In this document: positions 8,105-32,879 of the stretch, in pieces
Numbering within the stretch: the stretch's first letter is position 1
Layout: each line of letters begins with the position of its first letter
Origin: Amphiscolops sp. MND2022
Taxonomy: Eukaryota
Reading direction: 5' to 3'
Length of the DNA stretch: 64,000 nt
Assembly: GCA_964187785.1 (NCBI GenBank)
Contig: OZ076409.1
Coordinates: 11,224,001-11,288,000, forward strand
Translations under genes and position numbers: made by a program
Notes under the pieces: model-generated
Seen by the model: the letters and a program-made list of their open reading frames with translations, nothing else
Told to the model about the DNA's origin: nothing
Databases searched by the model: none

Positions 8105-8561
8105 TGCTTTCTTTCTGAGCAGACAACAGAGCTGAATTGTCCTTTTTTACAAACTTTACGCCGATTTAAAGTGTAACCGAAAAGGTCAATGGGTACTCCC
8201 TTTCAGTATTTCAGTTTTACCGTCTCCTCAAAACTATATGGGGACCGAAGGATCCCCTTTCGGTTTTTGCAGCGCTTACTACTTACTTAAAAATTTATCA
8301 CCAAAGGGGGGTCCCCTTCCGTTTTTTAATGTTCTCAGTTACTGCAATACGTTCCAAGAGCTCAAAGGGGCCCCCTTCAAACTTTTCGGCATTGTGCGAC
8401 TTTCTTGACTTTCGGAATAGTCTCTTGACGTTCTGAAAAGAAGGAAGTGTATTTTCTTTGCTAATATAAAAATAGCTTCCAAAATATATCTTTGTTTTGT
8501 TCATGTTTTTAAATGGTCGTTTACAAGAATGTGGCAAAATGTGTGTTTTCTAGATAGATGA

Positions 8562-9179
8562 ATGGGAACAAGGCAGAGTACACAGGCATCCTCAGCAGCC
8601 TATAACAGTAGACATGGTGCCCAACCCAGTCACAGATCAGTTGTTGCCTCGTCGAACGGAGCCCCCCACTCGCACACCCGCGGTTTGAGGACGACGGCGG
8701 GTCATGGGAGTCAACATGGAGCGCCTTCAAGCACTTCTGTGCAAGCACCTGGTCATACAAGTTCCATGTGGCGACCTTTCAACCCAACTAGTTCCTCAAA
8801 CCCCACTTCTCGTCACGGTCCCGGCCACAGTAGTAACAGAGGTAGTGGGGCCGCCGGGGGCCAGGGTATCACCATTTCGCACGGGGGTCAAAGGTTGATT
8901 AGCTTATCAGACATCAAATGCCCAGTATGCAACAAGACGGTGCGATGCATCGACGACTTTGAAGTGCATGTTGTTATGTGTTTGACCAGACCAAAGTTGA
9001 CTTACAACGAAGAGACGGTGGAAGAAGAAAGAGAGGAAGAGTGCATTATTTGTTTGGAAGATTTCGTAGTTGGTGAAACAATCGCCAGATTACCTTGTTT
9101 ATGTGTCTATCATAAACACTGTTTAGATGAATGGTTTAAAGTTAACAATGTTTGTCCACAGCACCCGCCCGATGATTGA
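8562..9179 (+). CDS. ZNRF: ZNRF1/2-type RING-H2 E3 ubiquitin ligase (single coding exon)
   Basis: N-myristoylation-type start MGTRQS, low-complexity linker, Zn finger CPVCNK...HVVMC, LTRPKLTYNE, and C-terminal RING-H2 CIICLEDF...IARLPCLCVYHKHCLDEWFKVNNVCPQHP. Splice acceptor TTTTCTAG lies just before the ATG. Confidence 0.93.
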   Translation: MGTRQSTQASSAAYNSRHGAQPSHRSVVASSNGAPHSHTRGLRTTAGHGSQHGAPSSTSVQAPGHTSSMWRPFNPTSSSNPTSRHGPGHSSNRGSGAAGGQGITISHGGQRLISLSDIKCPVCNKTVRCIDDFEVHVVMCLTRPKLTYNEETVEEEREEECIICLEDFVVGETIARLPCLCVYHKHCLDEWFKVNNVCPQHPPDD

Positions 9180-12507: not shown

Positions 12508-15500
12508 TCAGTCTTCGCTACTGTTTTTTGATGTGTTTTGTTTACTGCAGAAAAGTGAGAAGGCAAATTTCAAGTAATCAAGCAATTCTTTGGGTCCGCC
12601 AAATGAGTATTCTACCTTTTCTTTATCCTTCTCGAAAAACTCCACCAGGGGTCTCCAAAATACAGGAAACCATTCGTCCGACTTGATTTCCTGAAATGAA
12701 TCTTAAATCAAGTGACACCAGGTTTAAAAAGTATTCAGATCGCTTCACGATCAAAAATTTTTCGGTTTCTCACTATTTTCTCAAATCTAGTATCTGAATG
12801 AAAGAGTTTCCAATTTATCAAATGACGCTCTTGCATGTTCTAGTGAATATGGAGCGCTGATTACATGAGAATGTCCATTTATTTCTTCACACGCTATGAA
12901 TGGATACAAACAGGAGGTATGACAATCAGCTGTTACAGGGTGCGACTGTTACAATGGCCTTAGTTTTACACTTTTCCTCCCCCTTAATGGTTCACTTTTT
13001 GCAGACGTATACTGGTTTCTGCGCAATACCTAAAGAACATCTATAGTTCACTTTTAGTATACCGAGTCCTTTTTTTACGAAAGTGTTTCATACTTCTTAT
13101 GTGTATTTTATACCGAAGTCTTTTTTTACGAAAGTAGAGACAACAGGGTCGCCGTTTGGTTTCATTTCCATTGTGAGATCATTTCAAAAATTTGTCCTGA
13201 AAAGGTTCTGCTTGAGTATATATTTTTCGATATTTTGCAACCACGTGACGAATATCTTGCTACTCACTTAGAAACCTATGATCGGAAGTAGTATACGTTG
13301 GTAGGGGTATTCGCACACTTTCGTTTCTCCCTACAGTTTAACATGGAGTTTTTGCAATTTTCTGCAAAAGGTAACCATATAAGGTAACAATTCTCAGCTA
13401 GGGCCACCTCTAAGTTGTGCGGGAGCGGGTAGAATCATTTAGATTAACAATTTGAACTGTATTCGCAATCTGATGATGTCTTTTTACACTCTTAAAACTT
13501 ATAACTGAACAGGCAGTGTAGCTCTAGTGCTTAAAACCGCTGCAGCGGGCTCGATGGTACCGTGATCGAGCCGCACCCTAAGCACTAGTCCTGCACTACC
13601 ATTTTGATGGAAATCAACAATAAAATTGAGCCTGAAAATTAAACACGCAGAGGTTAAAATACCATATTTATTTTGACACTTCGCCACGCTAGTCAATAAA
13701 TTTTCCAGTCAAATCAGTTGTGCGTACCAAAAATATCGTGAGAGAGTTGCAATCAAGCCGGTGATTAATCTTTTCCAATTCAGACGCTAATATGACTTTT
13801 TGATTTTTTCCCACCAAAAAGATGACATATCACAAGTCGATTGAAAATAAAAACCGAGTCCAGAAGTTGCATTTCATTTCAACTGAAAACCTCGTCAGTA
13901 CATCATGACTTCCACTACAAAAGAATTTTCCACTGAACGTATGAGATACCTTCTATACGAGACAAACGAAGTCTTCACACAAAAAACCTGGGACTCTTCT
14001 GATCAAGACGACAGTGTGACAGAACCCATACCCAGAAAAGAATACAATCCATTGAGAAACACAAACCATTTGGTCGAAAGTCTCAAAAAATTCCTCGAAT
14101 GGGTTATAGATTACTCCAACTTGGAATTTTGCGTGGCTCTGCATGCGAAGGAAGACGACGCAAACGAAATGGATATTTGCCAGAGTTATGGAAGACTGCA
14201 CTATCACGTGATACTCTATAGTGTGAAATTTCCCAAAACCTTGGATAAAATTATCAAAAAGAACTTTACCACTACCCTCGAGGAAACCATGAACTCGCAG
14301 AACAACTACAGAATTGAAATGTTCAACACAAATAGTTCATCTTTTCGAAGAGAATTTTTGAGAAACACAAAAACTTTGGTGACACATGGGCCATCTATTC
14401 AACAGCACTTGAAGGGATTGAATCATACAAGCAGCCGCAATCACGTTGACTGTATCTGGGACAAATGTCAAAAAAGTGGGCGGTATGAAGCAAGCCGCGA
14501 CACAATCATCGATCGAACCAAAATTCTAGACAACGTTGAAGAGTTGGAAAAATCCGCCAGTCAGTTCAAACATGTGATACCCGATATCGTCAACTTTCTC
14601 ACCCAAAACAGCTATGGATCCTTCACCAACTCCCAACACAGTTCGGTTTTAAAAGTATCACTCGACCTGACCGACGCTCAATGTTGCTGCCACGACTGCT
14701 GCTTTCCCGAAACACAAACCCCGGAGAGCAGAAACTATCAATTCATTGACGAAGGAACTGTCCTGTTTGAACAATCATTTGATTGTATATTCAGCTAGAT
14801 TTCAGTTGCTAAAAATTTGCTTTCAATCATGTTGTTTTCTGAGTATCTTGATATACAACAAGTAATAAAAAACTTTGATGAACTAGTAATTATTTTCCCA
14901 CAAAATAAGGTCAGCAAAAATGCTTTTCTCGCAGTTTGTCAGGGTATTGACCCAACACGGGACCTGGCAGCAATAAATGTAGAATGTGAGTACGGAGGCT
15001 TGATAGGGCCAGGCAACAGTTTCCTACATCCTTTGCTTCAGAAATTTAAACTTTTCCGTGTTCACGCGGTCTTTCATGATGCATTTGGTTTCATGAAAGA
15101 AAAGTATAATTTGGGACCAGGATATGTTTACACATTGGGTGAGGAACCATTATTCAAGAACAGCTGCCTGTTGGGTCATTTCACCGGCTTGTTTCTTTGG
15201 ATGTATCTAAAACTGACACAATCACAGATTTATTCCGAGTTGCCATTTTGACTAGTAAGCATTCCAAATGTCAGCTGCTAGCTCCAAGCTACCAAACACA
15301 TCACTGCAGCTTTCATTGAATTCGAAAGTTTTCATACAATATAATCATCAGAATCATTTTTGCATTTACCTCGAAAAGATTGATTCTGGTGTCTGTCCGC
15401 TAAACAAATACAGGTTGAGACACCTAGTTCCACTCACTTTGGAAGAACTTCTCCAACTATCGGAAGCATCGAAAATTCTTTGTTCAACCCTAGAATACAA

Positions 15501-18500
15501 CTATAATCTTTCTAAAAAGCGAGAATACCCAGATGCCAAACCATCTCGCAAATAAAAAAGCTAAGGATCAACCAGACACACCAATATCTGTTACTGGAGG
15601 CAGTCTGATTTTTGACAACGACGAAAACGAGAGGCCTCCTTGGAAACTTCAATGCTGTTGTATTAGAAAAGAATGTGAGCGATCGCTCCAAGTCTTATTA
15701 CTGCATTATTTTATCGTCTTTTTGGTTGTGGCAGCAAGTATAGGGTTCTTATTCCTCAAGCAGAGCGAAAACAAGGGCAGCATAGGAGTGGTTGCCATCA
15801 TATCAGCGTACTTAGGCTATATAATTCCGTCACCGAGACAATGAACAAAATAATCAGCACAGATCCCACTGTTTTCTCATGGTAGTTGGACCCAGTGGCT
15901 CGGGAAAAACTTACTTAGTCTCGCAGCTTCTGAAACAGCATCACCAAATTTTCAAACCGAACTTCCAACAATTTCTGTACTTTTATAATCATTTTCAACC
16001 CATTTATCAAGAACTGCAAGTGTTACTGGGACCAAAAACTTTTCATCTTTGTCAAGGTGTTGACTGGTCTCTACTGGACAAGGCATCGGCGTCAAACCGA
16101 CACACTCTCGTCATTTTCGACGATGTCTATCAAGAAGTAGCTGCCGCGAAAGAGTTTTTGAACCTCGTGATTTCCGGCCGACATCAGAAACTACATCTGC
16201 TGGTCCTGAAGCACAATTTGTACCAGCAGTCAACAAACTCCAAAACGATTGATCTGAATGTTACACAATTGTTGTTGCTGAGGAACCCACGAGACACAAA
16301 TCAAATTGACTACTTGGGACGACAACTTGGTTGTCGAGAACTTTTACTCAATTCGTATAAAAGAGCAACGCAAGATGAGTTTGGTCATTTGCTCATCGAT
16401 CTGGATCCCCGGCTGAATGAAAACTTGAGTTTTTCTTCAAACATAGTTTCTAAACCAGCCATTTATTACTGTAACACTTCAAACTCGACAGCAATAAACA
16501 TTGATGATTCCTTCACAACATCTTTATACAATTGAGTTGTTCTCATCTTTCAAACCAATACTAAAAAGACATTTCATCTTACATTGTAGTGACGATATAA
16601 AACTTTTCTGCAATTGCCTTTTCAACATCAAGGAAGGAGCGATAGAGCTCAAAAATGTGAAACCTAGTACTCTCAAGAAAAATAAACTGCTCATTCAACA
16701 GCTCTGTTCACCTAAGATCAGGTTGGCTGTGAAAAGAGAACTACTGGCGTCCAAGCAAGGACAAACTCTTTTACGCCTGCTAAAAACTTCAATATTAAGA
16801 TATCTGAAGCTACAGTGCTATGAGCAAGCCAACAAAGCGGTTTGTACTTGTGCCAGCTGATGTGTACTTCAACAAAGGAGAGGAGAAGGCCATTAACGGC
16901 GGCTTAATTGCTCAACCATCAGTAGCAACATCTGAATCGAAAAGGGCCAAGTTTTCCGAACAAGACCTGAAACAAGAACTTATCAAGGAAGAAACACATT
17001 GCGAATCACCTTTGGAGGTGACCACGAAAGCGAGTCAACTCGATGTTCTAGATCGACTTGCGCCGTCGAATCGTAAAGAAGCAATCGATCAGAATAAATT
17101 GTGGAACATAAATAACAAAATACAAACAATCATTAGTAAATTGATCGAGCTCGGCTTTAGCAGCAGCAAGTTGGAAAGATCACGAATTATATTACAATCA
17201 TTTTTCAAAAATTCGCGACTGTCTCAACGAATTGCTGGAAATACAACTGGACGGCAGTCCAACACAGGTAAACCTCCTAGCATTTCTGAGTGACCTTCAA
17301 GTAGCCAACAAAAAACTGGGTGAAGCATCACTGAATGTGCTGCGTATACTTAAAATCACATATAAACACATCATAGCAAATGTCAAGGCAAAAGAGGTGG
17401 TGTCGTCAGCGGGACAAAACGATTCGACATCGAGTTCACTTTCTTCTTCGACCTTGTGGGTCGAGCGCTTCTGATGACGGGCAATTAGCAGCAGAACTCA
17501 TCAATCAACTCTTGATTCGAGCAGGAATTGAATTAAATCCCGGACCTCTCAAATGTAATTGCTGTAAAAAGCTTTTGGGCAAAAGTACGAAAAAGGCACC
17601 AACTGTTTGGTGTCACGTTTGCGGATGGGTACACTTCAAGTGCAGTGGCTTAAACACACCATTGGATTATCAAAAGACTACCAATTTTCGGTGCCCGTGG
17701 TGTGCCACCAACACTAGATTCGCAGACGAAAGTTCAGACCCGGCACTTTTAACATTGCACAAACTGTACACTTCAACAAGCAGTCACGCCGCTTTCGGCT
17801 CGAGCGAGGTTTTGAGGAAGGCAGCAGCAACAAAAAGAATCAAGAGAAAACAAGTTGACAAATTCCTTTCACAGAGCGAAACGTACACCAAGTTCCGCGC
17901 TGGTATACACAAGTTCACCCGGCTTAAAGTGCAATCTTACCGAATCAATGAAATTTGGTCTGGTGACTTGGCAGATGTGCATCAATTAGCAAAAAACAAC
18001 GACGGCAAGAAATTTCTCTTGGTTTTTGTGGATTGTTTGAGCCGATTCCTCCGCCTGGAAGCAATTGAAATCAAGTCAGCAACGCAAACAAGGACTGCAC
18101 TACAGCGTTTGATACGGAAGCAAAAACCAGAAAAGATTTGGGTGGACAAAGGAAAAGAATTTAAGGGCGAATTTGCCAAGCTATGTGCAGAGAAAAACAT
18201 TACAGTATATAGCACCCACAGTGAGATGAAATCATGTTTGGCCGAGCGCTACATTCGAACTCTCAAGTCAATTTTATTTAAATATTTGCATGAACACCAG
18301 TCGATACATTGATCAACTCCAAAACTTTGTTAACCTCATCAATTCTCGACCTAACAAGACCACAAAGATTGCTCCGAAAAAAGTGACAGAAAGATGTACC
18401 GTACCTCGTTTCGTTATCAGCCAATGCCAACCCAGTGAAAAAACCACGGTATAAGATTGGTGATACAGTAAGGATTCGATTGAAAATCCCCTTTCCACAA

Positions 18501-21500
18501 GGGCTATAAAATTCAGTTTACAGAAGAAATATTTGAAATTGTAGCCAATCCGACACTGAACCCCCCGACGTACACAATAAAAGACAAGGACGGCCAAGTC
18601 ATCGAAGGAAAATTCTACGAGGCAGAATTAGTTTTATTTCGTTACAGTTGAGTAGGTAGCTAGATGACCTTGTACCTGCAATGGAACAAACTTTTACAAT
18701 CAATTTAATTTCCAATGCTTCAATGCAAGTGTTTCCTGCAAACACTATGGCTCAATTCACAACATTATTACCCCATAGAATTGAACTAGCTGGAGACTGG
18801 GAAGTTGCCATTCTAGAGGCATCTTGGCCGGCCAAAGTTAAAAACATTACAAGCGCCGCATTTACGTTGATTTGCTTCGACAAAAAGTCAAAGAGACCAA
18901 CAAGACCGAAACATAATGGAACGATACCAGACGTCTATTATCCAAACGTCGACATTCTGATGACTAAACTGATACAATCAGTGTATCAAAGAAACGACAC
19001 AAACTTCCCAGTTAGTTGGAAAGTTGATCCAGTCAGCGGGAAAATTGAAGTTTTTTTCCACAGTCAAGAGTTGGAAGATCAATTTTGGCTCCTGTTCAAG
19101 TCAAGCGATCTGTCAAACACACTCGGAATCACCGACACGATTTGTTGCACAATTCAAAGCCAACTTGGAAAAGGTTACGCCGTGCAAGGCACTTACCCGG
19201 TCGATCTACAGGGTGGTCGGCATACAATGTTTTTATACTGCGATTTGATTCAAAACGAAGTCTTGGGTGACGCTCAAACAGCTCTTTTGAGGGTCATACC
19301 GTTGAACCAAAGAGATGCTGTTTCCAATGCAACATGCTACAGAAACTTTCAAAAATTGCAGTGGAAAAAACTGACAAGGTCAAATTTTCAATCAATAACG
19401 ATAAGACTCTACGATGAAAGCGGCCAGCTGATGCCTTTCGTCAGTGTTGGACGAACCAATCTCACGCTAGCTTTCCGTCGCCGCAGCGGCCACTCGTCTT
19501 CATTCAACTAAAATCAACAATTCTGAACAGTTGCTAACTAAAAGACCAAAACACAATCCATGGATGCTTACTATGCTTCGCAGAGGACATTCCACGGACC
19601 AGCAAGGCAATTCGGTTCCGGTGCAGGTCTGGGAGCCTTTGCAGTTCGCGTGGGACGGACTGCCATGCCGCTTTTAAAAAAATACGTCGCCCCAATAGTC
19701 AAACAAGTAGGCCAAAATGTGCTAGAAGCCGCTCTACCCGAAGTGGCCAGTCTCATTTCAGGCAAAAAGAAGACAAGAGGGCGATCAAGGATGTCGCCAA
19801 ACGGGTGATAGCAAAAACTATTGAGCCGAGTGCCGCGGCGGTCGGGCGGGCGGCGGCGGCGGCGGCGGCGCAGCCAGAAAACGAAAGCATGCTGAGTTGT
19901 TGAAAGCTCCTTCAACAAAAACAATCATTTCGAACAAAAAGACCCCCAAGAGAAGTCGGGCAGACATTTTGACCAAAGTGAGATTTGCCAATTCTTCCAA
20001 CAGTTGAAGGGAATGAGTGCCAGCACAACCAATTCAATACAATTTCATAGCCGAGCAAGCGATGTAGCTCAACCAGTAACACACAGTGCACTAGACTTTT
20101 GAAAAACCTTCAGTTTTGATCAATTACGAAGGGTCCCACGACCAAGAAGTTTTTCCACAAATGGGGTGTCGAGGACCACAATTGGATTTTATAGTTACCT
20201 CCGACAATAGAAACCTGGTTGATTTGAACAAAATAGTCTTGGACATCGACTGTGCCATCTATAAAGCCGATGGGAAAACGCCTGCCGAAGAAGTTCTTCC
20301 TGTATGTTTTGCAAACACGCTACATAGTTTGTTCTCTCACGCCGAGGTTTTTATTGACGGCATATTGGTTTCATCGAGCAACAATGCATACCACCACGCA
20401 GCATTCATCGAGACGGAAATGACGACCGACCTTGATGCGAAAGCAACTTGGGCTCGATGTCAAGGCTACGAGTACCAGGCAGACAAAACATCAGAGGAAG
20501 AGTTAGCCAAGTGGAAAAATGAAAAATACGAGCAGGCAAAAATCTCGAAAAACAAAATTACGACTGGTTGGAGCGCCCCATATTGACTTTTTCGAATGTG
20601 AAAAAATTCTTTTGCCAGGAATTACACTTCACATACGCCTCCACAGATCAAGCAACGACTTTGTACTAACATCTCTAGACAGCAGCAGTGATGATGAAAA
20701 GTTTGTTGCAATTATTGAAAGGGCATCACTGTTCGTCACCAAAATGGTCGTGAAGGACACTGTGCGAATGTCCATAGAAAAGGCGTTGGTATGTGGTCCT
20801 GCCCATTATCCCTACATTGAGACATTAAATAAAAGTTTCATCATTCAAGCAGGACAAAACAGCTTTGTGAAAGAAAATATTTTTGGAACGGAACCAGCCA
20901 GACGTCTCACTTTGTGCATGACAACAAACGAACAATTCCGAGGAACTAGGAATGCAGATGCCTTCCATTATAAACCCTTTGGCTTGCAGAGACTAGAAAT
21001 TACTCGTGGAAATGGGGTCCCAGTCCCAGGTAGTCCGCTGGACATGAGGAATGGAAAAATGCGAGCCTATTACAACACAATATGTTCACTTGGCTTTGCT
21101 GCGGGTAAAGGAGGAAACGGAATCGCTTACAAAAATTTTGACGATCATTTCGTTTTGGTATTCGATCTGACCTCTAGCAGAGAAGCTTCCAAAAGTCTCA
21201 CCTTATTTCCTGAACTAACAGGAGGTAGTCTCACGTTGAAGTTAACTTTTGAGCAACAATTGGAACAAACAATTGAGCTCTTCCTCATTGCGGAAAAATT
21301 TTGTCAAATTTTCATTACATCCGAAAGAACAGTTCTCAAAAACACGGTATTGTAGCTGTATCAAGTCACACTAATGGACACTTGGGCTCTACAAAAACTG
21401 GCACTCAAATGTAGTCATTTGATAGAAACATTTCGGGGAGTTTGGAGTGCAGACAACTTTCCTCTGATGAACGAGGACGATGCATCACCGTCATTTCAAA

Positions 21501-24500
21501 TTGTCAACACTGAAGCTAGCAACAAACCCGGAAAACACTGGATTCTACTATGCAAAAGAACTAAATCAGGTATAGGTGCTATCATATTTTGGGATAGCTT
21601 GGGAAAAAGGCCGAGAAAATACAAGGTATTGTTCGAACGATTGAATGAAATTTATAAAACAATTGTTGTATTCAACCATCCTCTTCAGAGCAACTATTCA
21701 AATTGCTGTGGTTTGTATTGTATACTTGTTGCACATTATTTACCATTATCGGATAATAACAAAGCAGCTGCACAAATGCTCCCAAAGAAGATGGTTGATG
21801 AGTGTTCATTAATTCGTTTTATAAATTACCATTATAATACTGCTTTCACATTTGTAGTCATTTGATTAATTGATCATTATTAACCACAATCACTTTCTTC
21901 GGCTTCACTAAGTATGAAGGGACACTTTCGTTTTGGTTCTCTGTCATCATCATCATCTCCACAGTAGTCAGACAGTTCATCGAAATTGACAATGTTTGAA
22001 GAATGCTCATCAGCATCGTCATCATAGGGTCGAGACGAGAAACCAGGATCAATAGGACCTGATAAGGAAAGAAAATAAAGTACTCGGTGCTTTAGTTGAC
22101 AGAAATTCGAATACTTAGAGTGATATACATACTGAAGATGGAGGAGGCCAACGAGCGCACAGAGGCGTCGTCACTTTGAGGAAAAACAGACGACGAAGCC
22201 CCATCATCATCATTATCATCATCATCTAACTCAGTGTCATCTTCGGCGGATGAGGATGAGACTGAGTAGGAGCGGGTTGAGTCAGAGAAGTCTGAAAAAA
22301 AGAACGAATAAAATTAACCATTCACACCTTTATGCATAAGATTGAAAATAGGTGAAAGTATTACTTGACTGTTTAAGTGAATGATGTCCGTAGGCCAAAG
22401 ATTTAACACCACAATCCAAGAGAAATCGTTTATCATCAAAGGCGCTTAGGGCGGTTTTGTTCACTGGAACCACGACTAGTTGATGTTGCTGCGATCGAAT
22501 TTGGGTGTTGACCCTGCAAATGTTCACTTTCGATTCTATAATGCTGGTGAACAGATCGTGATTCAACGTTTTTTTCACGCATTTTTGAACTCCTTTGGCA
22601 CTCTGCTTTACGCCACTGTCAAATTTTATACTGTAGAGTTTAGATCTCAAGCAAGTACATTCCAGTAGAATTTGACCATTCAATTCGTCCTTCATGGTTA
22701 GCGGCTTCTTCTTGTTAGTTGCGTCGTACAATTTCTGATTCTGAGGGTAGTCAGACAAATCCAAGAGATTTTTGAAAGATTCCATGTCTGAGTATAGATC
22801 ATCTGTTTCGATTCGATATAAAAGAGAATCAGTATCCTTGTAGACGACAGTTACTTTTTCTCCATAACGTGGCTTCATTTCGTTATAGTGGAAATTATAC
22901 AGCACAATTTTCGATAAGTCCAAAATGGCGGCTCCAACAGGCGTTGGTTTATTCCAGAAAGTTGAGGTTTTCGAAAAATTCAGTGAAACTAGATTGCTGT
23001 GGATTATTTGAAAAGTCAAAAAATTAGGCTTCAGGGTGTAACGTTTGGCCTCGGTAGTATTTGCAACAAACTTAGTATCCCTTCTATGACGTAGATTCTC
23101 CATCGTTTTGCCGAAACAGGCATTAGAAAGGAGCTTGAAAAAATTCTCGAAATCTGTTGTCGCATTTTTTCGCATTTGGGTGTTTTTGGATATGTAGTTT
23201 CCAAGCCAGCAGCTTTGATCGAACTGCAGAACACGATGGAGTTTCTTGACCTTGAGACCTTGCTCCAAATAAAATTTAAGGTTTCTAAAGTGGCATATAT
23301 AAAACTGTTTATCAAATAGCGTTTCAATAAGCTTGGCCACTGGTGAAACTGGAAGATTGAAGGAATTGGCGTAATCCGACAGCCATTCCTTCTTGATTGC
23401 GAGTTTTTCCGGAGCAAGAGGTAGGTCGTTGTGAGATGCATGCAAATGTGCTGGATATTCCAGGTCCACCTCAACGAAAAAACCAACGGGCCCGAAAGAG
23501 TCAGTTTGTAGGATATCCTCTAAAGTCAAATCTTCTCTCCATTTGTAGTTGCCGACAGGAAGAGGTTGCTGCATTGTTCCAGCATATAATGAAGTGACAT
23601 CAAAAAATGCTCCAAACACTGAAGGCTGGGAGGGATCGAAATCTTGCATGTATTGATTGTTAGCTTTGAAGTGTCGCAGGGCGCCGGTTCCATTGATACC
23701 GCCGCGAATAGCCCGCTCACAAAACAGTAACATATCAATATCCGTCAAAACTCCAAGCTCAACTTTGGTGGTGATCAGCATCGCTTCCCAGCTCAAGTTG
23801 GGAGCTGAAAAAAAAATGAGCAGGATCTAGTTGATACTCTTTCACACCCACGTCACGGAAAGCCTGAAAGATGTCTGCGAGGAGATACACATCAAGGGTT
23901 AAATATAGGTCATGATAATCGCCAAAGTCTTTGCACTGCATCAAATTGAACATATCCTTTGCTGTTTGGTACTGATCCTCGGTTATATCAATTTTACCAG
24001 TAAGACTATTTCTCCAAGCATCACCGTATGCTGGAAAAGGATCCGAAAACCTTTCGAAGCTGTTCAAGAAACTGTAGGGAAAATACCCTTTACCGCGAAC
24101 TTTTCGAAAGTCAGCATCGTTCAGATGCGAAAATTTCCTCCTTAAAAGTATGAGCGATGAAGTCTCCATTGTTCTGGCCAAGCTGTCGAGAGATTGGGAC
24201 ATGAATTGAAAACTGTCTAAGAAGCGAATTTCACTGTAAAGCGCAACAACTTTACCGTCCTTGCGTTTGTATTCAGAGACCTTGATGCGAAGGCTAAAAG
24301 AGATATAAATTTCGTCAGTACGCGAGATGGCTGAAAATTTTTCACCAGGGAGAACATTGATATTTTTCAGAATGTGGTGGGAATCATACCTGGAGAGATT
24401 GTGAAAGAACACAGGCAAGAAACGCTTGATCTGAGCCTTCAAATTACACATGGAATGAGCAATCCCAAAAATCATGCCCGATGAGTGGCAGTGATGAATC

Positions 24501-27500
24501 ACCGGGTCATCTTGTATGACGCTTTTGCAAATACAACACTTTTCACCTCTAGTTGAGGCCAGGAATTGCTCTTGTTGAGTTTTAGTGAGCACATCACTTA
24601 GAAATCTGTACCTTTGTCTCTCTGAGTCACACCAGGCATTCCACTTGCGAAGGCAGTTCATCAACTTTTCGATGCAATCTTCTCCGCGGTAAAAAGATTC
24701 ATCGACAACTTTGTTGCTTTGAGAATCAACCAAAACAGCTCCATAGCTCGCAGGTAGCTGTTTCTCAATCAGAACAGTTTTGCTGCCGCTCTGAATAAAC
24801 ATCGGAACGTTGAGAGCTTCTAAATCTGCATAAACGACAAAATGACACTTCTGAGTTATTTCCCAGTTTGAGAAAGTCAGTTTCAGATGCTCACTGGGCA
24901 TCACAATCCTCAAAGGTTGATTGTCATCACAAAGTCGAGCATGTTCCATGAATTTTTGCTTCCCAATAGACTGCATGCAGTTCACGCAAAACTTCGTTTT
25001 GGGACCCTTGGCAGCTCGTTTTGGAGATCTGCATACTTTATGCATGAAAGCTTGAAAATTAGTTATCAGACAATAGTGCGAATTGAAGCCATCCAAAAGT
25101 AAAAGCAAAAAAATCTTTGGATATTTCCCTCTGTTTCTACTTCGATGACAACAGATGAGTCCTCCCTGCTCATCGAAATTAAACACTGTTATGGAGAGAT
25201 TATTGTCGCTTTCAAATCTTGCGATATCCTTAAGTTTCATAGGCATCATTGACTCGCTGAATTTGAGACGATTAAATTTGTCACGGTATTGAGAAGGCCT
25301 TTCGCGATTTTTGGACCGAGGATAAAGGTACGCGAGAATACAATATATGAAGCAGAAATTGTCAAACAAGTTTTTGATATTAAGCAGACATTTACGCATG
25401 CCCTCAAGTTTTGCTGGGGTTGGCAGAAAAGAAGTTCCAGCAAGTGATCTTGTATGACAAATTTTGATATCTAAAGATGAAAGCTGTTTAAGAATCCAAC
25501 CTGAACCACCGGAGCAGAAGACGTTGAGTTGTCTCAAAACTTGGTCAATCAACTCATCAAAGTCTGCGTTGTCGATCGACTCAACAGCTCGCACCAAACG
25601 TGATGAGAAGTGGGGAGATATAGTTTCTTCGGTACATGGTTTTGATAATACAACTTGCAAACACAGACCAACGCGGGATATTCCTTGGTTGGTTATTTCC
25701 TGGTCAATCAAAAGTCCGATATTGGCTCGATTACTCCATATAAAGGCCAATGGATCAACACTTTCAGTTTGAACATCTAGTCGCAAAATTTTGAAGTGAG
25801 AATTCAAGGCTAACACTGTTTTAGAAACCTGCGGAATCGAGGCCCAATTGACTTCTGTTGTAGTTGTCATTGTGGACGAAGATACAACAGGGTGCTCCCT
25901 GCTCTTGTGCGCGTGGAGATAGGACTCGTTTCCAAAAATTTTTGGGCAAGCATTACATTGAATGCTTTTATTGAATTTGTGAATATTCCTCAGATGGCGG
26001 ATCAAATTCTTCGAAGAAGTACATGTTACTTCACAATGTCCACAACTGAAAGACCATAGAGAGGGCTCTTTTTTGTGAACAGCTCTGATATGTTTGAAAA
26101 GAAGTCGTTTGGTTTGGAAGTTGTCTCGGCAGTCTGGGCAAGGAAACATTCTGGCAGTGGGTCAATCAAAAACTGAACGTTAAATGATGGGTGAAAATTT
26201 GAAAAAGTATTCCATAAACCAAAAAAGAACAAAAGAAGTACTTTTCGAAACATGCCAGATCAAATTTAATTTTCACCCATCATTAGAGTAGATGTTAGAG
26301 AAGTAGGTTATTCAAATGCATGTCTATCATTCAGTAGCTAAACTTTAAAGGATTCTCAGTTGTGTTAATTATATACCAAGAAGAATACTTAGGTTCACCA
26401 AAGTTGAACGAAAGTCGAGTTATCAAGGTTCATCGACAAATATAGACAACTGAGAAGAAAATTTGAAGTCCAACATTATCGAAATCAATTCAATTGACAT
26501 TGCATAATTAATTACTTCTAGGCAGACTCGTAAATGACCAGATTCTCAGTTATGTTTATTCGATAGAGAAAAGATCGTTTAGGTTCATTATTAAAGTTGA
26601 GCTGAAGTCAGCTTATCAGGGTTCATTAGCTTATTTGGACAATGTGTGAAACAGTTTTGACATTATCAAAATGAACTCGGAAAAACTTCGGGCCCTTTGA
26701 AAAACAAAGGTGTCAAAAAATTTGAAAAGTGACAAAAGATGAGATAAAAGTCGGCTGGAAAGGAGTATAAAAGGTGCACACTTGGAATATATCTTGATTG
26801 AAGTTCCTGTTGAAAAACGCTCAATATTGGTTTTTAAAACTCTGCATCGTTGAAATTTCCAAATCATCAACCATGAACAACTTCTTTTCAATATTGATTC
26901 ATGAATCAAGAGAGGTCACGGTTCGCGAAACACGAAAACCCGGACAAGAGAGCAGCATCGAAATAAAGGTTCTCAAGAAGCGAGTTGACGAATTTGGCGA
27001 AGCTGGCGGGGTGATCGGCACCGAGGCTTCCTTCCCTGAGAAGGCCTTCACGAAACTGATGAGAATCAACTGGACATTAATTTTCTTCGGGATGCTGGGC
27101 AACGGTGAATTGCCTCAGGAGATGCTGGTGCCGACCCCCGCCGACGAGGACGCAGGGCTCCGTATGGAATCCCGTTTCACGTCAATAATTTTCTCTGAAG
27201 TCGGTAAGCATGAACATATTAAATAGGATTACTGTTGGTCAAAGAGAGAGGGACTCAGGCAAATTAGTCTTGAATCGAGCTTGAAAGATCACTAACATAT
27301 TCAGTGCAACCCTTTTCTTTGGGCGCTTGTGCCTCACAAGACGATGAATTTATCAAGATGACTTAGGTTGTATTGAAGTGCTTTGTTTCAATTCGATAAC
27401 ACTGTTCTCATTTCATGTTTAGGAGAGAAGACAGCATTCAGGGCGTCAGTGAACATATACAACTCGAACATACATACAAAGAAGAGTGTGTATGTTACAA

Positions 27501-30500
27501 TGAAGGCCTTCCGTTGGGAGCCCGAATGGTCACAATTCAATCGAGTTGGGCAAGTAATTACGCTGCATCATTGTGAGATGATGCGGCTGATTACGGAATA
27601 TAACGCCTATCTGGATAGAATTGTCGCTCCTTCTGGTAAGCCAACGGGAGATAGCACTTGCGAGGAGGAAGACCGACCCTTGTCACTACTGAAAGCTGGG
27701 ACGTCAAAGCGCACTAAAAAGACAGGATCTTCCTCCTCGCAAGTGCAAAAGAAAATACCAAAAAAGACGGCCCTTGCGGAAGGGACTTCAACGACGCCCG
27801 CAGTTGATGCCCCAAAGGAGACCACTAGCGAAGAAATCACTATCGAAGATAGTGAGGATGAAAACTAATTGTATAGATACAATTGATTTGTATTATTTTA
27901 TTCAGTACCTAATTGTATATTGTTATATTACCTTAAAGTTTTGCTGCTAGTTAGCAAATGACGCATCAAGTTTGAAAAATACATCAAGTATTTCGAGTAA
28001 AAACAGTGAAAAAAGAAAGTCATCATGAGAGCGGTTTTCAAAGTGACTGCGATCAGATTCGATCCGCGTTCAAAATACATTTCAAATTTTCAAATTGATC
28101 TAAAGATGAAAATTGAAGTAGGGAAATGTCCGAAAGTAGAAATTCATTTTAATTCCAAAATTGGTTTGAGCAAAACCCCTTGCTCCAATGCTTACTAAAC
28201 GCGCCGTGCCGGCGCGCTGTTCCTTGCGGCCCAGTATTACGAATTACATGAATTCCATCGTGGTCTACACCACTAGGCTACAGGCGCACTGATTTAGAAT
28301 GAAATTGGAAGACTGTAATTAGCAGCGAGAAGAATTGATAAAAGCGATGAAAGCAGTATTGGGAATGAGAAACATCAAATAGAATTAAATTGAGAATACA
28401 GCTATTCGGTGTGGTGGCCGTTCAAACTTCGATGACATTGAATAACTCTAGGGTTGAATTGAAACAGCATTGCAATTCAATCATTCCAAAACACATAGCA
28501 TTGAATAAAATCAAACATTGGAAAGAATGATTAGCAGTAACACTTACATCGATAGTTCGAGTTTGTATAAATCGAATAAGTTCAAGGTTAAACAGAAATT
28601 TGCGAAAAATGCAGAATTTTGTGGAAAAACAATAGGGAGAAACGAAAGTGTGCGAATACCCCTACCAACGTATACTACTATCGGACATTTTGAAAAGAGA
28701 TCAAAAACGTTTTTGAGAACGGGATTTCAGGGATAACTTCAGTGTCGGTGTAAAATGAGAAATGACACAATTCAATAAAACTTCCTAGTCAGATTTTTGA
28801 CACCGCTAGTCAGCCAATTAGCGCCCGCACATGAATTTTCTTCAGTGATTTCATTTGCGATTCAAATTGGCGGTAACAGATAGAATGTCCAAAATCAGAA
28901 TTTCCTTAAAATCTTGCATGAGGTTTCAAGATGCATATCAAAAATTTGCAACTGTTTCCCTTGTAAACCTCACACAGTACAAAAAATTCCAGTCTTGTTT
29001 TTCTTGCGAAACTAAATCAGGTTATGATTCAAAGATAGCTGAAGTCAAACATTTAATATTTTGGAGAAATTTTTTTTTCAGCGAAACAGCTATTTTATTT
29101 CTGCGATAGCAGGAATATAGAAATCTCAACGACGCAACTCTTTTTTCAGCCGAGTTTTCGTTCGTGATTCCGAGTACCTACTGAAAAATTCAGATGGTTT
29201 GTTCGGTAGTGATTATAACTGTGAGATTTAAATTTCTCAAGCTGCCGACAACAATTCGTTTCTCGTGCGATGAAACGAGCGAGTGTTAATTATGCATTCG
29301 TACCCCGAGTTATTGAAATGAAGCGAACGAGTGTTAACTGGTAGTTCGCCGAGAGCTTCATCTGCATTCAAATGTGAATGCGAAACTTCGTCCACGCTTA
29401 ATAGTTATATTTTCTTTAGTCCGAGAAGAATTAAAAGCGGTGTAAACTAGTACAGTGATTAATTGCGCGCTATATAATGATTAAACAGGATTTTTTGGTT
29501 ATTCCAGATATGTTTTATTAATGAACATGAAAGCCTAAAAAGCAAATAATACTGTGCCCCAGAGGGGCCTATTTGTAATTAGCGATTAGCAGAAACATTA
29601 GTGGTGTCAAAACCCCATTCTTAGTACACCAAAATGAGTAGTGGTGCCTATTCGCGGTTACAACGCAGCTGCTGTAATTGGAGATATTGATTACTTTTGT
29701 CTCTGCTATGAATGTGTAGAGCTTGAAGACCCAGCTACCCACGATTACGGAGCCCAGAATGTCTAGTGTGTAGTGATTGTGGGCCAGCAAGATGAGCGTC
29801 GAGATTGCCAGGGCTGTGAGGCCGTTGATTTTGCGCGCCAGACACCATTTGGGTGGCATGTAGTGGGAAAGCTAATGGCCAACAGAAATGTCAGTAATTA
29901 ATCAATTCATTATGTAACCAGAAGCTGCTTTCCTTTTTACATGTGAAAATATCCTCGTTTTCTATGATCCCCAAATCTCATTTTCTTCTTTCCTAATTCT
30001 CTTGTTAGTAAATGCAATAGCGTGAGCAAAAACAACAGAAGTACAAGAATCGTATTTTAAAGTGTCTATTTTAAGACTATTTTTTCTTTGGATATTTTTA
30101 TCCTGTTGAAATCAAGGCGCGACATACCCTTTGGGTTCTTTTCTGTTTTCTCCCCCACCACCAAAATTTTTGAAAATAACTTTCCTTAAAAATTTTAGAC
30201 TATCCTAATTAAAAGTAAAACCTTCTTTCATAACAGGAAGTTAACTACTATTAGAGTAGTTTTCCGCTTGAACAAAACATTGTTCACGCATTTTGACTAT
30301 AATTATGTTCGTCTTAAGTGTCTGTTGATGACTCAAAACAGGAAGCTGTTGATTTTTTCATCAAAAAAGCGTGACTGCATGTGGAAAAAGTGTGAACAAA
30401 GTTTGTATCTGAATCCTAAACTATCACCTTGAGAATAAGTTTAAAACAGAAGCTTTCTGGTTTGTATTCAAATCTATTTGTTATAATATTTTCACTAATT

Positions 30501-32879
30501 TTCCAAAAAAAATTTGGTGGTGGAGGGGGGGAACAGAAAAGAGCCGAATCGTGATTAGCTACGTCACATACCGATAGCGCCCTGACTGCAGGAGCAAAGC
30601 CAAGCGGAGCGACGTGCCACTACTGGTCCAGTGGCTGGTTTTGACGATGGCCGAGTCATAAAACCAATGTTTTGACTCCATTTTATTTAGGAGATTCCAA
30701 CCTAGGAGATTTTGACATGTAACCAGTCAAAATCATGCACAGCATCTTGGTGGCCTGTCAAAACTCGATTACATAATGCATGCTGCATAATTACATAATT
30801 GTGACATGCCTGATAATAAATGATGACTGCCATGAGAGCGTGTCCGCTGAAGAAGTAGTTTCCACACATGTGGCCCCCGAATATGGAGAGTCCCGCTGCG
30901 CTCCACAGGAGTAGCACCCGCTGCATCACTTCCGGGAACCCGGTCGCCTTGGGGGCACACTCCATCGTGTACTGGGAGCGGGGCAGCACGTCGGCCCAGA
31001 TACAGATGATGCGCAGCATGAAACAGATCGACTGAACCACCAGACATCGTCGGGCCAGCACGAAACGTCTTCTGTGGAGAACCACGAAAATTATTAACCT
31101 GTAGCAAAAATGTATCTTTTTTTCAAAAAACCAACATTCGTTGATATTCTAATTTCTTGCTCCGGCGAAGATTTTAGTTCAGTGTAATAATTTAAAAAAG
31201 CTTTGATAATTTCCAAATGACAAAATTTATGCTTCCGAAGGTACAGGAAAGACCAAAAGGTCCCATATTTAGTGTTTTTTTCGGCACTATGCTACTTTTT
31301 GCACATGACGAAGTCAATGTGCATTGCAGTCCAGCTAAGTAAGTTTTTTTTCCACTATAGTCAATTTCATAATGAGCGCTTTTTAGATAAAAGCCAAAAC
31401 CCCAGAGAGATTCGAACCTGCAGCCTCCCGATTGCACGGCATGTGTTGACCACTGTGCCATAGGGACGTTATTGAACAAAGTTGAACTGTTGAATATATA
31501 CGCATGCGATTAAAATAATATGTACGCATATTAAAATAATCGATGTCTTCGTCATGTGTTGCGAAGCACCGCTTCGCCTCTGTGTTGATGTTTTAAACCC
31601 GAAGTGTCCCCTTTGATTTTAGCAGGAACAAACTGTTTTTGAGGAGAATAGGGATCCCCTTAGGAGTTCTTGGACACTGTGTGACTTATCGAAGTCCGCA
31701 CCGACTTCGGCACAAATTTCGGGTTCTTGGGACCGATGAGACTTTTCTCAATAATTGCGGAAAAGACTTCGGCTCGGTGCGACTTTTTACAATTGTGTTT
31801 TAACTAAACGTTTGTTGCTTCGGTTTTCTAATGTTTTCAGTTTATAAAACATGTTTTGAGACTAAAGGGTCTTATCCTTTCTTACCCTTTCGGTAATTTC
31901 GGCACAGACTTTTTCGAACAAAATTTTCAGAGAAGACAAATTCGGCTCTTTGCCAGGAAGACAAATTCTTGAATTTTGTCAAAGGGTACCCCTTTGAGTT
32001 ATTTGAAGTTTTCGGTTTGTAAAAAACGTTTAATGAGCCTAAAGTGTCTCTTGGGTTTTTCGGCATTATGCGACTTTTTTACCAAATACTTTTTTTTAAA
32101 AAAAATTATTCCCAAATGTTTCCAAAAGTTGTTCCTTGAATATTTTTGAGCCTTAGATATGGCGCCGACTTGGGCCGTTCCCGGCTTGTTTTTTTTAAGA
32201 CCAACGAAGTGACAGATTTTATAAGCTTTATAAGCTGACTTGAACTAACACTAAATGCCACACTATTTCTACTAACACTTGAGATAGAGGTTAATTAGGC
32301 TGTTTTTAGGTCCCCTTTTACGTTTTTCGGCACTATGCGACTTCCCGGGGACCAAAAAAAATTTCGAATTTTTCATTTTTTTCCTCATGCGGGTACTGTA
32401 GAAGAGAATACTTGACACTTTGAAGTCCTTTTGCTATTTTTGAGCCTTAGATATGGCGCCGACTTGGGCCGTTCCCGGCTTGTTTGATATTTTCAGTTGC
32501 TATTTCAGTTTGATATTTTCTAATATAGCCATGTTCATTGAATGTACAAAAGTTGTGACACAAACCCAACTTGATACGAGAATAATAGAAATTCCGATAA
32601 AGGAGCCGCTACGTGCTCTATTGGACGAAGATCCAAAATGGAGTCCCTCAAAACAGGAGCTTCGATGTTGAGTCTTTCGTTGGACATGGTGATGGTAAAC
32701 ATAACGAAGAGTTCAACTAGCTGGAAAAGTAAAAAGCTGCATGTAACCAGACGTATTTCACCAGCTACATGTTTTCCTTTGTACTTCCTCGGTTTTTCAG
32801 GCTCAATTTCACCAAGTTTGTCCGAATTATCCGCGCATGGAGTGTCAAGAAGGGCTTTTATCTCTTCTGAGTCCGCCAT
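12508..32879 (-). CDS. Sphingomyelin synthase family (SMS/SGMS-like) gene, 4 coding exons, ~320 aa: 32879-32566, 31098-30810, 29871-29695, 12690-12508
   Basis: Motifs ERL..PVLRD (D1), RRCLVVQSICFMLR..LP (D2), CGNYFFSGH (D3), HYTLD (D4), and C-terminal FWRPLVEFFEKD. Exon lengths 314+289+177+183=963 nt join in frame. Intron 2 needs a GC donor (CAG|GCATGT); intron 3 contains the Polinton. Confidence 0.85.
13287..13333 (+). repeat. Polinton left terminal inverted repeat (47 bp)
   Basis: AGTAGTATACGTTGGTAGGGGTATTCGCACACTTTCGTTTCTCCCTA, the exact reverse complement of 28633-28679. Confidence 0.97.
13905..14798 (+). CDS. Polinton accessory protein with HUH-like motif and Cys-rich C-terminus
   Basis: 297-aa ATG ORF; FCVALH...GRLHYHVILY resembles the HUH motif II of rolling-circle Rep/NS1 proteins; CCCHDCC near the C-terminus. 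Function is inferred only. Confidence 0.7.
   Translation: MTSTTKEFSTERMRYLLYETNEVFTQKTWDSSDQDDSVTEPIPRKEYNPLRNTNHLVESLKKFLEWVIDYSNLEFCVALHAKEDDANEMDICQSYGRLHYHVILYSVKFPKTLDKIIKKNFTTTLEETMNSQNNYRIEMFNTNSSSFRREFLRNTKTLVTHGPSIQQHLKGLNHTSSRNHVDCIWDKCQKSGRYEASRDTIIDRTKILDNVEELEKSASQFKHVIPDIVNFLTQNSYGSFTNSQHSSVLKVSLDLTDAQCCCHDCCFPETQTPESRNYQFIDEGTVLFEQSFDCIFS
14829..15251 (+). CDS. Parvovirus/adintovirus-type phospholipase A2-like protein
   Basis: YGGLIGPGNS (cf. Ca-binding loop YLGPGN) followed by HAVFHDAFG (cf. catalytic AxxHDxxY); first ATG at 14829. Confidence 0.7.
   Translation: MLFSEYLDIQQVIKNFDELVIIFPQNKVSKNAFLAVCQGIDPTRDLAAINVECEYGGLIGPGNSFLHPLLQKFKLFRVHAVFHDAFGFMKEKYNLGPGYVYTLGEEPLFKNSCLLGHFTGLFLWMYLKLTQSQIYSELPF
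15268..15555 (+). CDS. Small Polinton protein, possibly PC4-like
   Basis: 95-aa ATG ORF in the tightly packed cluster; beta-rich pattern ending VPLTLEELLQL. Confidence 0.55.
   Translation: MSAASSKLPNTSLQLSLNSKVFIQYNHQNHFCIYLEKIDSGVCPLNKYRLRHLVPLTLEELLQLSEASKILCSTLEYNYNLSKKREYPDAKPSRK
15533..15844 (+). CDS. Small Polinton membrane protein (two predicted TM segments)
   Basis: Hydrophobic stretches VLLLHYFIVFLVVAASIGFLFL and IGVVAIISAYLGYII; the stop overlaps the ATPase ATG (ATGA at 15841). Confidence 0.65.
   Translation: MPNHLANKKAKDQPDTPISVTGGSLIFDNDENERPPWKLQCCCIRKECERSLQVLLLHYFIVFLVVAASIGFLFLKQSENKGSIGVVAIISAYLGYIIPSPRQ
15841..16535 (+). CDS. A32/FtsK-like genome packaging ATPase
   Basis: Walker A GPSGSGKT, Walker B LVIFDD, GRH motif. 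The likely start ATG 15841 (MNKIIST) is 1 nt out of frame with ORF 15879-16535. Confidence 0.93.
16501..16860 (+). CDS. Conserved basic Polinton protein
   Basis: FCNCLFNIKEG...LKKNKLLIQQL...KRELL pattern resembles the small basic protein found near the ATPase/integrase in Mavericks. Confidence 0.6.
   Translation: MMIPSQHLYTIELFSSFKPILKRHFILHCSDDIKLFCNCLFNIKEGAIELKNVKPSTLKKNKLLIQQLCSPKIRLAVKRELLASKQGQTLLRLLKTSILRYLKLQCYEQANKAVCTCAS
16820..17474 (+). CDS. Polinton protein of unknown function (one frameshift near 17225)
   Basis: ORF 16820-17293 (MSKPTKRFVLVP...) continues in the frame of 17232-17474 (...LWVERF*). Confidence 0.55.
17474..18651 (+). CDS. Retroviral-type (rve) integrase with N-terminal 2A-like peptide and PHD finger; several frameshifts
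   Basis: LIRAGIELNPGP; PHD C..C...CHVCGWVHFKC...CPWC; DDE motifs WSGDLAD, WVDKGKEF, AERYIRTLK. After a shift near 18300 it continues RYIDQLQNFV...IGDTVR...FTEEIFEI...EGKFYEAEL..., ending at TGA 18651. Confidence 0.92.
18681..19511 (+). CDS. Minor capsid protein (penton)
   Basis: FTINLISNASMQVFPANTMAQFTTLLP...GDWEVAI; MFLYCDLIQNEVLGDAQTALLRVIP; ITIRLYDESGQLMPF, typical of Polinton penton. Confidence 0.88.
   Translation: MEQTFTINLISNASMQVFPANTMAQFTTLLPHRIELAGDWEVAILEASWPAKVKNITSAAFTLICFDKKSKRPTRPKHNGTIPDVYYPNVDILMTKLIQSVYQRNDTNFPVSWKVDPVSGKIEVFFHSQELEDQFWLLFKSSDLSNTLGITDTICCTIQSQLGKGYAVQGTYPVDLQGGRHTMFLYCDLIQNEVLGDAQTALLRVIPLNQRDAVSNATCYRNFQKLQWKKLTRSNFQSITIRLYDESGQLMPFVSVGRTNLTLAFRRRSGHSSSFN
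19560..20007 (+). CDS. Gly/basic-rich core (protein VII/PZ-like) virion protein, frameshifted
   Basis: MDAYYASQ...FHG..RQFGSGAGLG...AMPLLK start; across shifts near 19780 and 19850 it continues to a basic tail ending RSRADILTKVRFANSSNS*. Contains a (CGG)n run at ~19850-19870. Confidence 0.7.
20013..21355 (+). CDS. Major capsid protein (double jelly-roll, hexon-like), two frameshifts
   Basis: ATG 20013 (..HSALDF), then NTLHSLFSHAEVFIDG...NNAYHHAAFIET, ILLPGITLHIRLHRS and FVLVFDLT motifs in ORFs 20116-20586 and 20519-21355. Confidence 0.88.
21374..21865 (+). CDS. Adenain-like cysteine (maturation) protease
   Basis: IVNT...PGKHW (His), FWDSLG (Asp), LQSNYSNCCGLYC (Gln, Cys). Confidence 0.93.
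   Translation: MDTWALQKLALKCSHLIETFRGVWSADNFPLMNEDDASPSFQIVNTEASNKPGKHWILLCKRTKSGIGAIIFWDSLGKRPRKYKVLFERLNEIYKTIVVFNHPLQSNYSNCCGLYCILVAHYLPLSDNNKAAAQMLPKKMVDECSLIRFINYHYNTAFTFVVI
21880..26149 (-). CDS. polB: Protein-primed family B DNA polymerase with N-terminal C2H2 fingers; one frameshift at the T9 run (23808-23816); predicted spliced C-terminal exons 22291-22133 and 22058-21880
   Basis: Three C2H2 fingers; GSGW region; DNFCF..HYCLI (OTU-like Cys/His); ExoI YADLE; HHCH..G..AH..CNL (endonuclease VII-like); HNLSRYD; FLDS; KGYFPY; DVTSLY; KLLSNACFGK; YKDTDS. The unspliced stop is at 22330. Confidence 0.93.
26766..26772 (+). promoter_or_regulatory. Candidate TATA box of the right-hand Polinton gene
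   Basis: TATAAAA about 100 nt upstream of ATG 26873. Confidence 0.4.
26873..27868 (+). CDS. Spliced Polinton gene (26873-27203 + 27423-27868, 258 aa), probable PC4-like ssDNA-binding protein
   Basis: Donor G|GTAAGC at 27204 and acceptor TTTAG|GA at 27422 join the two ORFs in frame. RASVNIY...VYVTMKAF...VITLHHCEMMRL follows the PC4 pattern; basic then acidic low-complexity tail. Confidence 0.65.
28633..28679 (-). repeat. Polinton right terminal inverted repeat (47 bp)
   Basis: ...CCCCTACCAACGTATACTACT followed by the TSD ATCGGA. Confidence 0.97.
30132..30546. mobile_element. MITE-like element (~410 bp); related copies at ~35230-35632 and ~39903-40640
   Basis: Inverted ends TCTTTTCTGT..CCACCACCAAAATTTTTG / AAATTTGGTGGTGG..ACAGAAAAGA; interior clearly similar to 35230-35632. 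Confidence 0.65.
31301..31582 (+). mobile_element. HINE-like family B with an internal tRNA-like module; second copy at 47558-47840
   Basis: Sub-terminal IR CACATGACGAAG / CTTCGTCATGTG; 3' hairpin GCGAAGCACCGCTTCGC; minus-strand A box TGGCACAGTGG and B box GGTTCGAATC. Confidence 0.7.

Follow-up and report, generated by a model that had tools for sequence, protein, structure and literature searches.

The closest described systems are the animal Polinton/Maverick elements, Alpha adintoviruses with a protein-primed family B polymerase (pPolB) of the PF03175 type (PMC8097293, PMC8502044, bioRxiv 10.1101/2024.03.18.585575). In the accessible portions of these sources, no introns are reported from intact vertebrate Mavericks, whose core genes are described as intron-free (PMC8097293), a polymerase intron is not mentioned (PMC8502044, and likewise PMC10748475), and the polinton pPolB is given the domain order TP-vOTU-EXO-PALM with no tail (bioRxiv 10.1101/2024.03.18.585575). 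The 64,000-nucleotide stretch of Amphiscolops sp. MND2022 contig OZ076409.1 analysed here, referred to as the window, carries a Polinton/Maverick of 15,393 bp (13287–28679) in a 1.07-Gb genome, recognisable as animal from its histone genes. This element resembles the systems described in those portions in its terminal inverted repeats (TIRs), 6-bp duplication, pPolB, rve integrase, A32 ATPase, protease-like gene and convergent modules. It differs from the vertebrate Mavericks in that its polymerase gene has two conserved introns of predicted spliceosomal type, and from the polinton pPolB in that a clade-specific acidic tail appears to follow the last polymerase motif. The comparisons below indicate that this tail is a genuine addition to a known enzyme, specific to one clade and concealed by conserved introns. 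The literature searched on Polinton, Maverick and adintovirus yielded no description of it, with Repbase annotations, subscription journals and supplements lying outside that scope and supplements possibly holding tailed polymerases. Annotation of Polinton polymerases starts from open reading frames, so standard pipelines do not see a spliced tail and may report the polymerases of this clade as too short.

The 3' part of the polymerase gene (22365–23826, minus strand), recognised through polymerase homologues, runs from the palm to the final DDKR...YGH motif and is followed by a predicted intron 1 at 22292–22364 (73 nt, phase 1, GTAATA...TTTCAG), which reads GTAATA...TTTTTTTCAG from 22364 to 22292. 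The unspliced polymerase frame ends within this intron, at an in-frame stop (22332–22330). Beyond it lie a predicted exon 2 at 22133–22291 (159 nt, 52 codons), which encodes a Ser/Asp-rich linker with a GAT repeat that varies between copies, a predicted intron 2 at 22059–22132 (74 nt, phase 1, GTATGT...TATCAG), which reads GTATGT...TTTCCTTATCAG from 22132 to 22059, and a predicted last exon of the polymerase gene at 21880–22058 (58 codons plus stop, 19 D/E). This last exon ends in TAA TAA TGA, with the first stop at 21882–21880. Both exons are open throughout, both junction codons are sense codons, and the join adds 112 residues, with 33 D/E among the 110 residues encoded by the exons proper. 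Both introns have the features of U2-type introns, namely a GT donor, a pyrimidine tract, an AG acceptor and a maintained frame, and they are very probably removed by the host spliceosome, joining the tail to the polymerase. The initial annotation of this DNA had proposed two phase-1 GT-AG introns with a stop-free join and an unspliced stop at 22330; introns, exon sizes, coordinates and stops all lie where it had put them, and the tail it described is real, its estimated length of about 113 residues being corrected to 112.

Chance was assessed with a simple home-made splice-site score, which ranks the two-intron paths that lead from the end of the polymerase into the last exon, and with 200 dinucleotide shuffles. 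The best path of the window scores 20.5 and is matched by 0 of the 200 shuffles, and in eight other families of the same genome the observed score is reached by 0 to 7 of 200 shuffles each. A very improbable alternative is that the polymerase is never joined to these exons, the sites being due to chance or the exons part of another transcript. In its favour, the splicing is predicted from sequence, the intron-1 donor (CAA|GTAATA) is only moderate, and some two-intron path of any score is permitted by 31 to 107 of 200 shuffles (93 of 200 for the window).

That the two exons constitute the C-terminal tail of the polymerase, as the initial annotation had supposed, is strongly supported by relatives in which the same module is contiguous with the enzyme. 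Polymerase homologues number 4578 at E<=0.001 (7990 candidates scored), and 269 homologues were inspected, 120 from that search and a further 149 from the 150 matches of a 1128-position whole-polymerase profile to 50% representatives. In eight of the 269 the module follows the last polymerase motif in frame; six of these eight were used to build the module profile, leaving P0170 and P0069 as independent cases, with P0069 showing motif 1 only and its cluster mate P0169 the whole module. A profile of exon 3, built from 13 last exons that all come from this genome, recovers 18 proteins (7993 candidates scored), of which 14 have the polymerase end in frame ahead of the tail, one is a tail-only fragment and three are last exons read back into the intron, while none of the 18 is joined to another domain. 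The tail of P0003, used alone as a query, found only itself among 66 candidates, and three pattern matches in viral contigs were not confirmed as relatives. Among 80 metagenome loci, one (L104) carries the tail, contiguous in sequence. Several contiguous forms sit on contigs of 100–700 kb, so intron-less genomic versions of the tail-bearing polymerase likely exist. The database proteins P0319–P0321 are last exons read back into an intron, P0319 being nearly identical to one of the families in this genome (L073), which indicates that frame-based gene calling misses the join.

The predicted intron 2 splits motif 1 (aromatic-S-x-[PI]-D-P-G-F; 22039–22136, minus strand), whose aromatic residue is encoded by the final codon of exon 2. 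Of 23 contiguous relatives, many of them from one family, 18 have an aromatic residue four positions ahead of the DPG aspartate. Across nine families of this genome one is found at the same position in eight when intron 2 is removed and in none when intron 2 is kept. Motif 1 takes shape only once splicing has occurred at the exact predicted sites. The distance from YGH to the D of DPG is 62 residues in the spliced product and 53–97 in the relatives, and motif 1 is retained at 38–63% polymerase identity.

In a FastTree phylogeny of 151 polymerase cores (261 sequences thinned at 58% identity, midpoint-rooted with no outgroup test), the window and all eight tail-bearers group together in a single 13-tip clade (SH-like support 0.996). 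The tail is quite probably an old feature of this one polymerase clade, and the introns would have been acquired a single time, in the lineage of the families found in this genome. They are read as gains since the contiguous forms sit next to and below this lineage in the tree, a reading that depends on the midpoint root and includes contiguous forms on some contigs of uncertain nature.

The distant families within the genome extend this evidence. A protein search, with 150 of 2416 candidates scored, provided 21 loci of about 60% identity taken across the list (L070–L090), and a downstream exon with D-P-G-F/L and F/Y-I-x-x-E/K-A-x-E is present in all 21. In 17 of them the best path has both introns in phase 1 and places the acceptor 8 nt ahead of the DPG aspartate; L080 becomes an eighteenth once its second DPG-like match is used, and L074, L084 and L087 deviate. 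Nine families, grouped by eye and represented by one copy each with the window included, were then compared. Over the last 140 polymerase residues the window is 61–64% identical to the other eight, and exon 3 remains 0.41 identical against 0.21 when shuffled, whereas the intron interiors stand at 0.51 against shuffled values of 0.485 and 0.494. The splice sites and phases have thus outlasted the sequence between them, which is the signature of introns in use. Introns with clear sites measure 62–85 nt, L083 offers three candidate acceptors for intron 1, and the in-frame stop of intron 1 is present in eight of the nine families and absent in L070. The tail-less isoform by intron retention that had been suggested for the window is possible but unsupported, with intron 1 of L070 lacking a stop and intron-less relatives carrying the tail in one frame. 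As a side observation, the last exons of L071, L073, L079, L080, L081 and L083 share an extra ending of basic residues followed by L/I-V-[SNG]-Y-S-[DSY]-S, an ending that is absent in the window's own family.

Fixed positions with unrelated interiors in nine families suggest that the introns have long been copied along with an active element. Introns within Polinton-like elements are also described in the accessible portions of work on dinoflagellate Polinton-like introners (PMC11957031) and on group I introns of cryptophyte Polinton-like viruses (PLVs; PMC12220804); those are mostly recent, repeated mobile insertions or self-splicing introns, whereas the predicted introns here are of the GT-AG type, at fixed positions in nine families. 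Introner-like intron copies were not found between the nine families, whose interiors are at shuffle level, the rest of the genome not having been searched for copies. Their fixed positions over nine diverged families show that a core replication gene of such elements can acquire introns of the host type and retain them. The proposal that the introns are kept for the poly(A) signals of the convergent protease gene was rejected, as AATAAA occurs in 5 of 9 families for each intron against 3.6 and 2.7 expected, with shuffle fractions of 0.24 and 0.10 and hence no enrichment. In the window, AATAAA lies on the plus strand at 22074 and 22307, antisense within each intron.

Close copies of the element were collected by a DNA search that gave 42 matches (40 of 49 candidates scored) and 40 loci, of which 37 were aligned and three partial matches excluded; splice sites were counted in the 34 copies that span the region, excluding the window's own copy and two broken-off copies. 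The initial annotation had named conservation of the splice sites and of FxxxEAEE in copies or relatives as its check. A motif of the form F/Y-I-x-x-E/K-A-x-E is kept in all 21 distant loci, and the sites are kept in 32–34 of the 34 close copies (donors in 34 and 33, acceptors in 33 and 32). Since the close copies are mostly 92–99% identical, this retention shows family-wide presence more than selection. Of 30 length changes in exon 2, 29 are by a multiple of three, to which little weight is given because nearly all lie within the GAT repeat. Between introns and exon 2 there is no clear substitution contrast among the close copies (about 1.0–1.2%), exon 3 stands at 0.5%, and the codon-position bias is weak in seven diverged copies. 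Of the 37 copies, 25 have the full set of four sites together with an intact exon-2 frame and motif 3. The loss of a site, the frame or motif 3 in the remaining 12 would favour exons unconnected with the polymerase, but broken copies fit decay after insertion; further against that alternative are the contiguous relatives, the straddling of intron 2 by motif 1, the phases shared over saturated introns and the shuffle scores. The GAT repeat itself (22200–22230) has about 4 Asp codons in the window copy and more than 25 in L025 (L019–L025 compared), and its length is a fast marker for ordering copies.

The tail is organised as a Ser/Asp-rich linker of free length followed by three short motifs, with a basic cluster placed before or after the third. 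Two of these motifs, aromatic-S-x-P-D-P-G-F (motif 1) and [VI]-[DN]-[FW]-[DE]-x-L (motif 2), add to the conserved elements noted in the initial annotation. Motif 2 reads V-N-F-D-E-L in the window (21973–21990, minus strand) and takes the general form in relatives. The basic cluster PKRK (21925–21936, minus strand), a candidate nuclear-import signal, is followed by motif 3, C-P-F-I-x-x-E-A-x-E-S (21892–21924, minus strand), in which F, I, E, A and E are invariant or nearly so and which takes the form [CN]-P-F-I-x-x-E-A-x-E across the tails. The pattern [FY][ILF]xxEAxE occurs eight times in 322,879 homologue residues, and seven of these occurrences lie in tails; when exon-3 peptides are shuffled, 0.02% contain it. 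Docking segments typically have this build, with short motifs anchored by hydrophobic residues and set in a variable acidic linker.

In all nine families the last exon contains a basic cluster, although its position floats. This fits the earlier description of PKRK as resembling a nuclear localisation signal, and the cluster probably acts in nuclear import. It is improbable, however, that import is the whole function, with acidic, phosphorylatable residues nearby adjusting a basic signal and the rest of the tail a passive spacer. The constant presence of the cluster, the 1 to 7 S/T-x-x-D/E sites in each last exon and the freely varying linker length would all suit such a module, but the three hydrophobic-anchored motifs are better conserved than the floating cluster, and P0329 has the motifs with no cluster matched by the pattern used.

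The reading we favour, at a rough probability of 0.45, is that host chromatin proteins are the main partner of the tail, which would combine a nuclear-import signal with docking on histones or histone chaperones. In this scheme, the host spliceosome would remove the two short GT-AG introns and so add the 112-residue acidic tail to the polymerase, the basic cluster would carry the polymerase into the nucleus, and the acidic motifs would grip histones or histone chaperones as a docking arm, letting protein-primed strand-displacement synthesis pass a nucleosome-covered template there. Import with histone or chaperone docking is preferred because a strand-displacing polymerase in the nucleus would meet nucleosomes. 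The host Spt6 begins with YFETEAQES, which has the same spacing as motif 3, and the Atlas lists an SPT6_acidic cluster for the tail at 0.84, taken as a lead only. An aromatic-hydrophobic-x-x-E-A-x-E string in an acidic context is thus shared by the tails and the host Spt6 start, a resemblance rather than homology. In the accessible portions of the relevant reports, the acidic N-terminus of Spt5 and an Mrc1-like domain bind H3-H4 (PMC8886531, PMC11380579), and the acidic regions of Spt6, Spt5 (Spt5N) and Mrc1/Claspin (PMC8886531, PMC11380579, PMC11383432) are like the tail in forming a disordered acidic segment, in the aromatic-hydrophobic-x-x-E-A-x-E spacing and in being attached to a machine that moves along DNA. 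They differ from it in that only the short motif is common, with no profile match, and in that the contacts mapped in Mrc1 are other residues.

Several observations weigh against chromatin docking. The Atlas score of 0.84, obtained with 125 of 256 features, is below the threshold that the tool itself sets, and no such listing is obtained for the P0003 tail; the tail profile scores the host Spt6 motif at 0.9 bits only; and the sequence retrieved around host Spt5 did not show the motif. The histone contacts named for Mrc1 are M755, F758, L774, E763, D767, RKRN and KAF, with no FxxxEAE motif among them in the accessible text (PMC11380579, PMC11383432). Pfam has no family for the window's two exons, and PDB sequences give no meaningful match to the tail (best E 0.3). 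Exon 2 is 0.27 identical across the nine families against 0.25 shuffled, so that its composition alone is conserved. Moreover, four of the 13 clade tips (P0002, P0004, P0007 and P0180) are without the module in the called protein, one of them, P0002, being the window's sister in the tree and ending ten residues past the last motif, as an unspliced reading would. The tail is also missing from 261 of 269 homologues and 79 of 80 metagenome loci, and since most Polinton polymerases do without it, replication in the nucleus does not generally require it. In addition, the Spt6, Spt5 and Mrc1 acidic domains PF14632, PF11942 and PF09444 do not match any of nine exon peptides at E<=10, and a definition of the FxxxEAE motif was not found in the literature searched, the accessible parts of PMC13289920 and PMC10216454 included. 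The likeness to Spt6 and Mrc1 drawn in the initial annotation therefore survives in part: the motif is conserved and the host Spt6 spacing is the same, but there is no Pfam match and the Mrc1 contacts fall on other residues.

A different partner is considered for motif 2. It is unlikely that the tail recruits host transcription or repair machinery, chiefly TFIIH through the PH domain of p62, in which case a zinc-finger polymerase would open DNA ends or activate element genes. On the p62 PH domain, pocket 1 accepts W/F and pocket 2 accepts the V or L that comes three residues later, and the reference list of the same source names EBNA2 and RVFV NSs as viral users of this surface (PMC10345426, in its accessible portion). 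Motif 2 follows this rule in part, its aromatic residue being followed by L three places later within an acidic string in six of nine families and most contiguous relatives, as in the p62-binding acidic strings of XPC, Rad4 and TFIIE-alpha/Tfa1 (PMC10345426, same portion). The N-terminal C2H2 fingers of the polymerase point in the same direction. Unlike those strings, however, this feature, read here from sequence, is altered or absent in three of nine families and four relatives: Y replaces V/L in three families, and motif 2 is lacking altogether in P0019, P0034, P0055 and P0069. The pattern is also short and common in acidic regions.

Alternatively, the spliced tail may serve the element's own machinery, as an acidic DNA mimic folded back on the DNA-binding cleft or zinc fingers of the polymerase, or by binding the terminal-protein domain, the integrase or the packaging ATPase, keeping the enzyme idle until a template is met. 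We regard this as unlikely. Acidic tails link phage replication proteins, the tail is strongly acidic on a protein with basic DNA-binding parts, and motif 1, kept at the polymerase identities given above, has no host look-alike in the Atlas, Pfam or PDB comparisons. Against this, very distant elements share the motifs although their remaining proteins have diverged, which would fit a conserved host partner better, and motif 3 resembles the host Spt6 start.

Returning to chromatin docking, a stronger form of the proposal holds that this polymerase clade carries a histone-chaperone arm mimicking the Spt6/Spt5 acidic motif, that the helicase-less enzyme recycles nucleosomes while copying chromatin, and that two ancient introns put a switch between bare and chromatin-competent forms under host splicing; we consider this doubtful. 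The three short conserved motifs can be mutated, which makes the question of how the polymerase enters the nucleus and copes with chromatin directly testable.

The remainder of the element establishes its identity as a Polinton/Maverick through the expected hallmarks, namely TIRs, a 6-bp duplication, a PF03175 polymerase, a PF00665 integrase and a PF04665 A32-like ATPase. The left TIR (13287–13339, starting AGTAGT) and the right TIR (28627–28679, ending ACTACT) are 53 bp long and 96% identical, and they are flanked by the target-site duplication ATCGGA at 13281–13286 and 28680–28685. On the plus strand follow the packaging ATPase (15825–16535; Pox_A32 PF04665, E 6.7e-07, above cut-off), a retroviral-type integrase with a truncated frame (17377–18312; rve PF00665, E 4.5e-11), presumed minor and major capsid genes assigned by position alone (18660–21355, with frames 18660–19511, 20095–20586 and 20507–21355), for which the sequence matches expected of double and single jelly-roll capsid proteins were not found in Pfam, PHROGs or PDB sequences, and an adenain-like protease convergent with the polymerase (21356–21865; Peptidase_C5 PF00770, E 0.0013, 18.8 bits, below the 21.3 cut-off). 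The 5' part of the polymerase (23759–26161, minus strand) contains C2H2 zinc fingers (zf-C2H2) and matches DNA_pol_B_2 PF03175 (E 6.6e-08, above cut-off). A frameshift splits the polymerase gene of this copy into two frames that overlap at 23759–23826, so that the window copy would not make a full polymerase protein. Its polymerase, integrase and presumed capsid frames are all broken, and the copy is decayed; some sister copies have polymerase frames of 1276–1277 codons, which makes the frameshift specific to the window copy.

The stop of the protease-like frame lies 14 nt from the tail stop (21865–21880) on the opposite strand, and a similar convergent frame ends 49–292 nt from the tail stop in seven of the eight other families (L070–L083), so that both 3' untranslated regions must overlap the opposite gene. 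Upstream of the integrase core and in frame with it, a Cys-rich stretch (CxxC...CxxC...HxxC...CxxC; 17377–17700, plus strand) is presumably PHD-like. Frames near the element ends on the plus strand (13887–14798, 14799–15251, 26798–27226 and 27377–27868) have no Pfam or PHROGs match, the one at 27377 ending in a basic stretch and an acidic end.

Outside the Polinton, the window contains a tandem duplication of about 1.55 kb (3657–6340) with 98–99% identity. Dispersed repeats with GGGTCCCC and TTTTCGGCA(C/T)T(A/G)TGCGACT cores occur in both orientations at 7800–10300, 31200–32500, 37700–39100 and 49100–51000 and are probably a non-autonomous transposon family. Elsewhere in the genome, the host histone genes form long tandem arrays of a 3.63-kb unit with H2B, H3, H2A and H4 (G000:C67, C4, C33 and others; L098, L103), and the host H4 is noticeably divergent.

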